From a bacterium (lineage in GTDB: Bacteria > JAGOBX01), in contig JAKPEO010000056.1 of NCBI GenBank assembly GCA_029551925.1, positions 703 to 64,702 of the forward strand: DNA of 64,000 nt, given 5' to 3'. Shown piece by piece: positions 42,586 to 59,332 of this stretch. Numbering within the stretch: position 1 is the first letter of the stretch; each line of letters opens with the position of its first letter. The notes under the pieces are model-generated. The model saw nothing but the letters and a program-made list of their open reading frames with translations. It did not search any database and was not told the origin of the DNA. Made by a program: the position numbers and the translations under genes.

Positions 42586-42614
42586 TTGACAAATATATCT
42601 AATTAAAATACATT
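42586..42614 (+). promoter_or_regulatory. promoter candidate TTGACA-17-TACATT
   Basis: TTGACA at 42586-42591 and a weaker -10 at 42609-42614. Upstream of the aroA'/aroB' pair. Confidence 0.3.
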
Positions 42615-42661
42615 ATTTTAATTGCAATACAATAAGTTTTTTTGTATAGGAGGATATAAAA

Positions 42662-43453
42662 TTGATAGGCAAGAATATTAGATTAGAAAGAATAATTAAT
42701 CGCAATACTGGAAAAGCAGTGATTATTCCAATGGATCACGGATTGACAGTCGGTCCGATTAAGGGCTTAGAAAATATGAAAAACACGATAAATGCAGTAG
42801 CAAACGGCGGCGCAAATGCGATAATACTGCATAAAGGAATAGTTATAAATGGTCATCGCAAGAAAGGAAAAGATATAGGGCTGATTATTCATTTATCAGG
42901 AAGCACATCATTGAGTTCTGATCCTAATGCTAAAGTATTAGTATGTTCAGTAGAAGAAGCGATAAGATTAGGCGCTGATGCTGTGTCAATACATATTAAT
43001 ATTGGCGCTGAGAGCGAGAGCAAAATGCTTGAAGATTTTGGCGCTATTTCTAAAAAATGTATGGATTGGGGAATGCCGTTATTAGCGATGATTTATACGC
43101 GCGGCAAAAAAATCAAAAATGAAAATGAGGTCGAAGTAGTAAAGCATGCAGCCCGCGTTGCCGCAGAAATGGGCGCTGATATAGTGAAAGTATCATATAC
43201 CGGCAGCGAATCATCATTTAAGCAAGTTGTAAAAGGTTGCCCGATTCCTGTGATGATAGCTGGCGGCGAGACACAAGCGAATGAACGTGATTTTTTGGAA
43301 TGTGTGTATTCAGCCATCCGCGCAGGCGCATCCGGAGTGACAATAGGTAGGAATGCGTTTAGCCATAAAAATCCAGCAAAGATGACAGCTGCTATTTGCG
43401 CGATAGTTCATCAAAAGAAATCAGTGAATGAAGCGTTGAAATTATTAGATTAA
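42662..43453 (+). CDS. aroA': 2-amino-3,7-dideoxy-D-threo-hept-6-ulosonate (ADH) synthase, class I aldolase DhnA family (archaeal-type AroA')
   Basis: TTG start after an AGGAGG Shine-Dalgarno. Near-collinear resemblance to my recollection of M. jannaschii MJ0400: LERI.NR..GK.VI.PMDHG...[54 protein letters not shown]. Confidence 0.8.
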
Positions 43454-43463
43454 GGAACGATAG

Positions 43464-44468
43464 ATGAGAAAGATACTATTTAATTCGTCAGATAAATTTG
43501 TTAAAAATTTAATTACTTTTGCGATAGAGCATGGAATTACTGATTTTTTAACCGCCAGCGAAGAAGTAGCGCAAAAAATCAGAGAATTAGCGAAAGTGAA
43601 AATTATAAGTTCGCAGAGTTTTGCAGATATATTAATTGGTAGAGATATTGAATATATCAATGTTAGCGATAAAAAGAGCGAAGAATTAGCAGTGCAATCA
43701 GCGCGCGTTAAACCTGTTATTGTAAAATTAGAAAATTGGAAAATTATACCAATTGAAAATATATTAGCGCAGACAGATAATATAATAGTAGAAGTCAATA
43801 ATTTTGAAGAATTGAAATTATGCGCTGGGATATTAGAAAAAGGCGTTAGCGCTTTTGTTATAAATACGAGCGATTTTAATGAATTAAAAGAGATGATTGA
43901 TTATATAAATAGTCAGACATTAAAATTAGAATTAATTGACGCTGAAATCATAAAGGTTTCGCAGTTGCCTGTGACTGATAGAGTGTGCATTGATTCCTGC
44001 AATATAATGACAATCGGCGAAGGTTTTTTAATTGGCTCGTCGAGTCAATGTTTATTTTTAGTTCATTCTGAAACCGTAGAAAATCCGTATGTTGCAGCGC
44101 GGCCTTTCAGAGTAAATGCCGGCGCAGTGCATTCGTATATTTTACTGCCGGATAATAAAACGCAGTATTTATCAGAATTAAAAGCAGGCGATTCGTTATT
44201 GACTGTAAATGCCAAAGGCGAGACGCAGTTGAATGTAGTAGGCAGAATAAAACTCGAAAAGCGTCCGATGTTGCTAATAAAGGCGAAATACGAGCAGCGC
44301 GAATTTTCGGTAGTTTTGCAGAATGCCGAGACTGTGAATTTAACAAGCGCGGAAGGTATGCCTATTTCAGTGACAAAACTCAAATCAGGTGATAAAGTAA
44401 AGTGTTATATAGAAAATGTCGGCAGACATTTTGGTATGAGCATAGTAGAGACGATAACCGAAAAATAA
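43464..44468 (+). CDS. aroB': 3-dehydroquinate synthase II (archaeal-type AroB')
   Basis: 334 aa. WKIIPIENILAQ and RPFRVNAGAVHSY blocks match the DHQ synthase II family as I remember it. Adjacent to the ADH synthase gene, as in archaea. Confidence 0.75.
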   Translation: MRKILFNSSDKFVKNLITFAIEHGITDFLTASEEVAQKIRELAKVKIISSQSFADILIGRDIEYINVSDKKSEELAVQSARVKPVIVKLENWKIIPIENILAQTDNIIVEVNNFEELKLCAGILEKGVSAFVINTSDFNELKEMIDYINSQTLKLELIDAEIIKVSQLPVTDRVCIDSCNIMTIGEGFLIGSSSQCLFLVHSETVENPYVAARPFRVNAGAVHSYILLPDNKTQYLSELKAGDSLLTVNAKGETQLNVVGRIKLEKRPMLLIKAKYEQREFSVVLQNAETVNLTSAEGMPISVTKLKSGDKVKCYIENVGRHFGMSIVETITEK

Positions 44469-44481
44469 AAAGTGATTAAAT

Positions 44482-46575
44482 GTGAAAATTAATAGAGAAG
44501 TAAAATTTATTTTTAAATTATCAGATAATAAATCAGAAAATAAAATATTAATCGAAGAATTATTAAGAGAATTTATTGACTATTGGCGCGATACTCCGGA
44601 GATTCAAAATATCCTTTTAGAGATAGAAAATAACAATTCTATATATGAATTGCGATTTAATGTATATTCCACGGCGTTGGCAGAGGAAGCGCGCGGCATT
44701 ATTATTACCGGCTTTGGCAATTCTAAATACGAGAATTTATTTGATTTAACAGTGCTGCTTTTAAAGAATTTTTTGACGGAGAAAAATATCGCTAATTACA
44801 TTAAAGCGCCGATTGAAAAAGTCAACGGAGCATTTGAAGATATACATTCTGATATTGACGAATTAGAAGACGAGATCCCAAAAAATTTCAAAGACCTTGA
44901 TGATGAATCCTTAAAAGAATTGAAAATAAAATTATCATATCAATTGGAGATGATTTTAAACAAAGCTGATTTGATAATAAAAAACTTGAAATTATTAGAC
45001 GATAGAATATTAGCGTTTGTCAAAGAATATCAGATTAAATTAGGAATTCACAAACAAACAAAATTTGCTATTCAGAAGCAGTATGAGCAGACAATAGATT
45101 CAGCGAAATTATTGCTTAATAAAGATGTAGAAAAAATCCATATTGATAAAATTTCGCATTTTCGCGAAGGCAGCGGATATTTTGATTTAGGAATGTTTGA
45201 CGATGCAATTGACGAATTTAATAAAGCGCTTGAAATCGAGCCGGATAATATTGAATTATTGAATAAACTCGGCTGGGCGTATTTTATGCTCGATGATATG
45301 TCAAAAGCCGAAGAATATTTTAATAAAGTTTTGAATTTGGATAATAATAATATTCTTGCGATAAACGGGCTTGCTGCTATTACTTTTAAGACGCATAATT
45401 ATGATAAAAGCATCGAGTTATTTAATAAAAGCATTTCATTAGCGAATGATGTCGAGCCGATTTATTTTGCGTTAAATCAGTTAGGGCAATTGTATTTATT
45501 AAAATCAGATTATGAAATGGCAATAAAAAAATTTTATAAAGCAATAGAACTGCTGCCGGACAGAGAAGAGGCGCATTATAATTTAGCGAATATTTATTAT
45601 AATTTAGGATTGTTTAATGAAGCGGTGTATGAATATAATAAATGCCTTGAAATTAATAGCGCTGACCGTTATGCAGAAGCATATAAATTAACGGCAGAAG
45701 GTCAGATTTTGCTGAATGAAAATATGATTGATGAAGCGATAGAAAAATTTAAGGAAGCGATAGAAAAAGATATTGAAGACCCGTCGTTTTATAATAATTT
45801 AGGCGCAGCGTATAATAAATCCGGCGATTATTATAAAGCAGTGAAAGCATTTAAAAAAGCGATAGAACTCAATCCGAATTATCAAATAGCTTATATTAAT
45901 TTAGGATATATCAGCGATAAATTGAATGAATTAGACGAAGCGATAAAATATTATAAAAAAGCGCTTGAATTAAAACCGGACGATATTGTCGCATTGAATA
46001 ATTTGGGCTGGGATTTATATTTAGTTCATAAATACGACGAAGCAGAAGAGTGCTATTTAAAAGCGCTGAAAATAGATTCGCATAATATTCAAGCGTTGAA
46101 TAATCTTGGCTGGCTGTATATAAAAAAAGCAGAATACAGCAAAGCGCTCGGCGTGTATCAGATAGTATTAGAAATAGACCAAAATAATGCTATGGCATAT
46201 AATGATATTGGTTATTTGTATTATAAAAAAAATATGTTGGATAAAGCGATACTTGAATTAAATAAAGCCATTAGATTGAATAATGACCGCGAGGCAATGA
46301 CCTACGCTTATTATCATTTAGGTCTTGTTTATTTAAAGAAAAAATTAAAAAATGAAGCGATAGCGTCGTTTAATAAAGCGATAAAACTTGACGGGCAATA
46401 TCAAGAGCCGTATTATCAATTAGGGTTGCTTTATAAAAATAATGAAGAGTATGCCACTGCTTTGAAGTATTTTGATAATTGTATTTCAGTTAATCCAAAT
46501 ACTAAATACGCGAAAAAATCCAAAGAGCACATAAAAAAAATTCAGATAATAATGAAAGAAGAGGTGGAAAATTGA
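44482..46575 (+). CDS. tetratricopeptide-repeat protein (~13 TPR units after a ~200-aa helical N-terminal region)
   Basis: Reiterated A..Y..AL..(D/N)P.N......LG..Y motifs through the C-terminal 480 aa. GTG start. Confidence 0.8.
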   Translation: MKINREVKFIFKLSDNKSENKILIEELLREFIDYWRDTPEIQNILLEIENNNSIYELRFNVYSTALAEEARGIIITGFGNSKYENLFDLTVLLLKNFLTEKNIANYIKAPIEKVNGAFEDIHSDIDELEDEIPKNFKDLDDESLKELKIKLSYQLEMILNKADLIIKNLKLLDDRILAFVKEYQIKLGIHKQTKFAIQKQYEQTIDSAKLLLNKDVEKIHIDKISHFREGSGYFDLGMFDDAIDEFNKALEIEPDNIELLNKLGWAYFMLDDMSKAEEYFNKVLNLDNNNILAINGLAAITFKTHNYDKSIELFNKSISLANDVEPIYFALNQLGQLYLLKSDYEMAIKKFYKAIELLPDREEAHYNLANIYYNLGLFNEAVYEYNKCLEINSADRYAEAYKLTAEGQILLNENMIDEAIEKFKEAIEKDIEDPSFYNNLGAAYNKSGDYYKAVKAFKKAIELNPNYQIAYINLGYISDKLNELDEAIKYYKKALELKPDDIVALNNLGWDLYLVHKYDEAEECYLKALKIDSHNIQALNNLGWLYIKKAEYSKALGVYQIVLEIDQNNAMAYNDIGYLYYKKNMLDKAILELNKAIRLNNDREAMTYAYYHLGLVYLKKKLKNEAIASFNKAIKLDGQYQEPYYQLGLLYKNNEEYATALKYFDNCISVNPNTKYAKKSKEHIKKIQIIMKEEVEN

Positions 46576-59251: not shown

Positions 59252-59323
59252 GGACCGCTAGCTCAATGGTAGAGCAACGGACTCTTAATCCGTAGGTTGA
59301 AGGTTCAAGTCCTTCGCGGTTCA
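59252..59323 (+). tRNA. tRNA-Lys (anticodon CTT), no encoded CCA
   Basis: Hand-folded cloverleaf. Acceptor GGACCGC/GCGGTTC (one G-U), D arm GCTC-AATGGTA-GAGC, anticodon arm ACGGA-CTCTTAA-TCCGT, variable AGGTT, T arm GAAGG-TTCAAGT-CCTTC, discriminator A. Confidence 0.9.
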
Positions 59324-59332
59324 CTGCTATAC

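Follow-up and report, generated by a model that had tools for sequence, protein, structure and literature searches.

The window, by which we mean the whole stretch of 64,000 nucleotides that was analysed, lies on contig C110 of a metagenome-assembled genome (MAG; hereafter G000) of an uncultured low-GC bacterium, which comprises 2.96 Mb on 131 contigs and is 86.3% complete. Two open reading frames are located in tandem on the plus strand of the window, separated by 10 nt and exactly where the first-pass annotation had placed them. The upstream gene, aroA' (42662-43453), starts with TTG and encodes a 263-aa DhnA-type class I aldolase, the putative 2-amino-3,7-dideoxy-D-threo-hept-6-ulosonate (ADH) synthase, and the downstream gene, aroB' (43464-44468), starts with ATG and encodes the 334-aa putative 3-dehydroquinate synthase II (DHQS II). 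The phylum of this bacterium is represented in the collection searched by four species genomes, namely G000 and three relatives, G001, G002 and G003. In G001 and G002, aroA' and aroB' are adjacent as in the window, with AroA' orthologues that are 79-80% identical, and G003 carries its orthologue of the window aldolase and its aroB' on separate contigs. We note that NCBI labels a protein from one relative as belonging to a 'Candidatus Dependentiae bacterium', which is a poor fit with genomes of 3-4.5 Mb that encode TonB, KDO synthesis and full chorismate synthesis.

A gap of 170 nt precedes aroA' and contains a sigma-70-like promoter candidate, TTGACA-17 nt-TACATT (42586-42614, plus strand), which matches the consensus at 10 of 12 positions and would leave a predicted 5' untranslated region of only ~45 nt; promoter-like consensus sites number 19 in the region, where 10.9 are expected. 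Two Shine-Dalgarno motifs can be read from the sequence on the same strand, AGGAGG (42648-42653), located 8 nt before the TTG of aroA', and AAGGA (43452-43456), which overlaps the stop codon of aroA' and precedes the ATG of aroB' by 7 nt. The promoter region and strong Shine-Dalgarno sequences that had been ascribed to the pair are therefore present as consensus matches and are its candidate expression signals. No Rfam match to a riboswitch or leader was found upstream of aroA', and the sole RNA gene that Rfam and ARAGORN report in the whole window is a tRNA-Lys(CTT) at 59252-59324.

The genes flanking the pair are der, a gene for a 3D/G5 wall-binding protein and a gene for a 697-aa TPR protein, the last of which (44482-46575) begins 13 nt downstream of aroB'. 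The single terminator-like match in the vicinity sits inside aroB', within chance expectation, and none was found in the window between aroB' and the TPR gene, so that transcription may run on from the one into the other. A long TPR protein also directly follows aroB' in G001 (L015; 61% identical) and in G003 (L011:2463-3962), the latter genome having kept this neighbourhood though the adjacency to aroA' is lost.

The profile searches proposed by the first-pass annotation confirm both a DhnA-type aldolase and a DHQS protein. AroA' scores 364.8 bits against the NCBIfam profile TIGR01949 (ADH_synth), above its equivalog cut-off of 299.45, and 405.1 bits against NF005556 (cut-off 241), and it matches the Pfam DeoC/LacD aldolase family PF01791 (DeoC) with 238.4 bits. 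AroB' matches positions 15-344 of the 344 in Pfam PF01959 (DHQS) with 386.9 bits (cut-off 22.2) and passes the DHQS II equivalog NF002627 by a narrow margin (400.6 bits, cut-off 392). With E-values between 1e-71 and 1e-122 for the family profiles, a chance match is excluded for both proteins. Within AroB', which is encoded by a single copy in the genome, the motifs RPFRVNAG (R213-G220) and QNAET (Q286-T290) are invariant in eight diverse sequences. AroA' aligns end to end with Methanocaldococcus jannaschii MJ0400 (PDB 2qjg; 331 bits, residues 2-261 of the query on 10-269 of the chain), and the counterparts of MJ0400 Asp33, Tyr153 and Lys184 are identical, as are the surrounding conserved motifs PMDHG, YTRGK and DIVKVSY. 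Thus, the gene identities proposed for the pair hold on the NCBIfam and Pfam scores as well as on the MJ0400 alignment. Tyr153 is a residue of MJ0400 that we take to be catalytic.

Other members of the same superfamilies were considered and rejected. AroA' falls far under the cut-off of the archaeal class I fructose-bisphosphate aldolase (FBA) model NF040816 (213.5 bits, cut-off 430) and of the LsrF thiolase model NF006081 (191.3 bits, cut-off 297). The same is true of the GriI/GriH-type models NF041223 and NF041224, for which AroA' scores 223.3 bits as BagB/FevI (cut-off 500) and AroB' 159.1 bits as BagC/FevH (cut-off 750). These last matches bear on the suggestion that the pair is a GriI/GriH-type (BagB/BagC) system producing 3-amino-4-hydroxybenzoate for a secondary metabolite, since the same two protein families do perform that chemistry and both proteins give the sub-threshold matches. 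However, the cut-offs for ADH synthase and DHQS II are passed whereas these are not, the genes surrounding the pair are not biosynthetic, and five downstream shikimate enzymes would be left without a substrate if the pair served another chemistry. We accordingly attach a negligible probability to a role of this kind.

The setting in which aroA' and aroB' would operate is given by the remainder of the genome. G000 encodes, on contigs other than that of the window, a type II dehydroquinase (aroQ), a shikimate dehydrogenase (aroE), aroK, an EPSP synthase (aroA) and a chorismate synthase (aroC), and it also carries asd for aspartate-semialdehyde dehydrogenase. The AroK assignment is that of a shikimate-kinase-family protein, which passes the Pfam SKI profile and lies under the NCBIfam equivalog cut-offs. 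By contrast, no canonical entry into the pathway was found. The only match to PF00793 in G000 is KdsA (KDO-8-phosphate synthase), which adjoins kdsD, no type II DAHP synthase was detected with PF01474 (a profile searched in G000 alone), and no protein of the genome matches the classical AroB profile PF01761. The three relatives likewise lack AroB, and the single PF00793 match in each of them is KdsA; the KdsA match of G003 (G003:C35:13588-14352, L024) is reported with one in-frame TGA, and its 259-aa open reading frame is still clearly KdsA (327 bits). DHQS II is present in all four genomes, which share the pattern of downstream enzymes and asd without the canonical entry.

The first-pass annotation had called for a check that DAHP synthase and classical aroB are absent, and neither was found in G000 or in the three other genomes of the phylum. 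It had named a canonical aroG/aroF and aroB set, together with an aldolase that groups with class I FBA paralogues, as the contrary outcome; no such set is seen and the aldolase scores as an ADH synthase. The four genomes on which the lack of a DAHP synthase and of AroB is based are each incomplete (86% for G000 and 97, 90 and 87% for the others), and at such levels of completeness a loss of the canonical entry through incomplete assembly is unlikely. A DAHP synthase and an AroB might nevertheless sit in the unassembled 14% of this genome, which is only 86.3% complete, so that the pair would constitute a redundant second entry, as is conceivable from G021, the one sampled bacterium in which DHQS II and AroB occur together. 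Yet AroB and a DAHP synthase of the PF00793 family are missing from four of four genomes in the phylum, including those that are 97% and 90% complete, and we regard such redundancy as highly improbable. With the canonical enzymes not found, the route to chorismate is complete only if aroA' and aroB' provide 3-dehydroquinate. From the sequences we consider it very probable that the pair represents aroA' (ADH synthase, EC 2.2.1.10) and aroB' (DHQS II, EC 1.4.1.24), and that together they form the only recognisable entry into the shikimate pathway here.

Such a pair is not rare and is ordinary in bacteria. A protein search returned 7946 significant matches among 8000 candidates, many of them bacterial MAG proteins that already bear the name '3-dehydroquinate synthase II', and scanning species genomes for the two AroB' motifs (RPFRVNAG and QNAET) yielded at least 596 confirmed relatives. 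The best 80 of these at least 596 relatives are all 40-50% identical to the query and derive mostly from MAGs labelled Planctomycetota, Desulfobacterota, Aquificota, Spirochaetota, Nitrospirota, Omnitrophota and others, along with a few archaea; in most of these 80 loci an ADH-synthase-like aldolase lies directly upstream of DHQS II, across many bacterial and archaeal lineages. In a sample of 401 bacterial genomes, 398 of which are other bacterial genomes that are each at least 90% complete, DHQS II is found in about 34 of the 398 (9%, or ~1 in 11). All 37 genomes with DHQS II in this sample, that of the window included, contain an ADH synthase match over the cut-off, and only one genome has such an aldolase without DHQS II. 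Within the 41-genome sample that was searched for AroB, the enzyme is lacking in seven of the eight other genomes with DHQS II.

The description of the bacterial route as patchy was therefore not borne out, given that about 9% of the 398 sampled bacterial genomes carry DHQS II. No explicit statement on how the route is distributed in bacteria was found in the GapMind papers, Price 2018, Zucko 2010 or a 2023 network study, and since this literature does not describe the bacterial distribution, our view that the route is widespread rests on our own genome counts and on a cluster table for Desulfovibrio hydrothermalis (see below). NCBI's curated models automatically name aroA'/aroB' modules of this typical sort, so that the pair is nothing new in kind.

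The occurrence of an archaeal-type route in a bacterium had been taken in the first-pass annotation as a sign of lateral transfer. We built a quick maximum-likelihood tree from 89 AroB' sequences; it is unrooted, and its sample is biased towards query-like sequences. The window protein falls into a clade with those of G001 and G002 (support 100), to which G003 and a further bacterium are joined with weak support. The archaeal sequences, six or seven in number, are dispersed among the bacterial ones, and the deep nodes are unresolved. Of the phylogenetic comparison with archaea, the part that stood is the interleaving of archaeal and bacterial sequences; an archaeal sister group for the window clade did not emerge, and because the trees give none, no recent archaeal donor is seen. 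A recent transfer of the pair from an archaeon could draw on this interleaving and on the discovery of the pathway in methanogens. Against it, four of four genomes in the phylum carry the AroB' of the pair, with full support for the window-family clade, and the closest sequences from outside the phylum among the matches listed are 44-50% identical and are bacterial as well as archaeal. Moreover, the GC content of 0.35 around the pair, compared with ~0.30 for the window overall, falls inside the range of the window. We conclude that recent lateral transfer is very unlikely, with the gene shared throughout the phylum, no archaeal sister group and an identity to outside sequences of ~50% at most. 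An ancient inter-domain transfer, in either direction, may have taken place and is compatible with an unrooted AroB' tree with unresolved deep nodes; with a sample biased to query-like sequences and no root, this tree cannot settle the ancient history.

The less usual aspect of this genome concerns the aldolase, as G000 encodes three DhnA aldolases that pass the ADH synthase cut-off of TIGR01949. In addition to the window copy (364.8 bits), these are found on contig C25 (3974-4744; L003:1444-2259; 362.3 bits) and contig C21 (39746-40516; L004:1432-2232; 356.8 bits), unlinked to the window pair and 58-59% identical to its aldolase. The paralogues are identical at residues D25, Y145 and K176. 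The triplet is kept in G001 and G002, and G003 has two copies. The family of the window is the only one in the 401-genome sample with three copies that pass the cut-off, and most genomes with DHQS II have one. In a quick aldolase tree the C25 and C21 copies branch separately from the window copy; by an AU test, however, a topology that unites all 11 aldolase copies of the phylum in one clade is not rejected (p 0.40). The neighbours of the paralogues, a 207-aa Cys-rich open reading frame without a Pfam match and a DUF155 protein, provide no functional clue. The Cys-rich frame (L003:2256-2879 on C25 of G000; L029:2275-2886; L031:758-1384) matches no Pfam or NCBIfam model and sits between the C25-type aldolase and rsmD in three of three family genomes, with 45% identity; its start in G000 overlaps the stop codon of the C25 aldolase.

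Because all three paralogues pass the cut-off, it is adjacency and orthology that single out the window copy as ADH synthase. The scores of the three copies and their retained catalytic residues would also permit the window aldolase to be a glycolytic or other class I aldolase, with the C25 or C21 paralogue as the true partner of AroB'; the MJ0400 homologue of Halobacterium salinarum shows FBP aldolase activity (PMC4162585), and the G003 orthologue of the window copy is not beside aroB'. This arrangement appears improbable to us, since across lineages the gene beside aroB' is as a rule an aldolase, this adjacency is retained by the window copy and by its orthologues in G001 and G002, and a class II FBA already serves glycolysis and gluconeogenesis. 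Furthermore, only one ADH-synthase-like aldolase occurs in most bacteria that have DHQS II, and in these it must be the enzyme of the pathway. The window copy thus remains our preferred ADH synthase.

The use of ADH synthase implies a need for a DKFP-forming activity, a point on which we agree with the first-pass annotation. MJ1585 of M. jannaschii is a class I FBA that acts on methylglyoxal and fructose 1,6-bisphosphate. In that organism it is the enzyme that forms DKFP, according to White and Xu as cited in PMC4162585. Searching G000 for the corresponding aldolase gave candidates, namely the two extra DhnA paralogues and the class II FBA, but neither a methylglyoxal synthase (mgsA) that could feed DKFP formation nor a member of the archaeal class I FBA family NF040816, for which the best score of any protein is 213.5 bits against the cut-off of 430. 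No bifunctional FBP aldolase/phosphatase was found in the genome, and a eukaryote-type class I aldolase gave no match in a search whose control likewise matched in no genome and which is therefore uninformative. The class II FBA present in G000 covers glycolysis and gluconeogenesis. Beside ftsA on contig C36 of G000 (L005:781-2151) we also observed a deoxyribose-phosphate aldolase (TIGR00126, residues 239-447) that carries a fused N-terminal extension of ~230 aa, for which Flavoprotein (PF02441) gives a weak match; G001 and G002 have frames of comparable length.

It is possible, if on balance unlikely, that the ASA/DKFP route is ancestral in this four-species phylum and that the family has split the aldolase work over three paralogues, with one of the unlinked copies acting as a bacterial DKFP synthase. 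Such a division would fit the catalytic residues kept in all three copies, the restriction of the triplet to this family and the failure to find mgsA or an archaeal-type class I FBA in the genome. A single copy suffices for most bacteria that use the route, and a DKFP role for the extra copies therefore remains speculation.

For annotation, the consequence is that this MAG should be scored as chorismate-capable despite the DAHP synthase and AroB not being found, and pipelines that test for the canonical entry alone would miscall it as an aromatic amino-acid auxotroph. That all genomes of this very small and deep bacterial phylum have the route adds a data point for an old and widespread pathway in anaerobic bacteria, and speaks against the route as an archaeal peculiarity. 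The pair itself raises no new question; what goes modestly beyond the ordinary is that all four genomes of this tiny candidate phylum have it, together with the threefold paralogy of the aldolase.

Which substrates and activity the two enzymes have in this bacterium, and where its DKFP comes from, is inferred from the characterised M. jannaschii enzymes. By this analogy, AroA' would form its Schiff base through the lysine that corresponds to Lys184 of MJ0400, and AroB' would oxidatively deaminate ADH with NAD+ and cyclise the product to yield 3-dehydroquinate, which could then be converted to chorismate by the ordinary bacterial enzymes AroQ, AroE, AroK, AroA and AroC. In MJ0400, for which the structures 2QJG, 2QJH and 2QJI are available in the PDB, Lys184 is the Schiff base residue and Asp33 the proton acceptor (PMC4162585). 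Even for archaea there is debate over the donor substrate, with work on H. salinarum having set DKFP against fructose 1,6-bisphosphate (PMC4162585, PMC8305020).

Among known systems, M. jannaschii MJ0400 (AroA') resembles the window aldolase in its full-length alignment, catalytic residues and TIGR01949 membership, and differs in that the host of the window aldolase is bacterial, its genome holds two further paralogues of the same subfamily, and its function is predicted. AroB' is likened to M. jannaschii MJ1249 (AroB') by PF01959, NF002627 and the RPFRVNAG and QNAET motifs rather than by direct alignment, and a sequence search detected no solved structure related to it. The GriI/GriH (BagB/BagC, FevI/FevH) 3,4-AHBA synthases of actinomycetes share the same two folds and families with the window pair, which nevertheless scores far under the cut-offs of their models and differs in genomic role. 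The GriI/GriH system takes aspartate semialdehyde as a substrate. A bacterial parallel is provided by Desulfovibrio hydrothermalis, in which an aldolase of the 'aq_1554' type and a 3-dehydroquinate synthase are followed by pheA, aroA, tyrA and trp genes, and the Desulfovibrio transcriptome indicates that the pair heads a co-regulated aromatic amino-acid cluster (PMC4162548). Whereas the window pair stands outside any aromatic operon, with the downstream aro genes scattered over other contigs, the two pairs are both bacterial and are the same in gene content and order.
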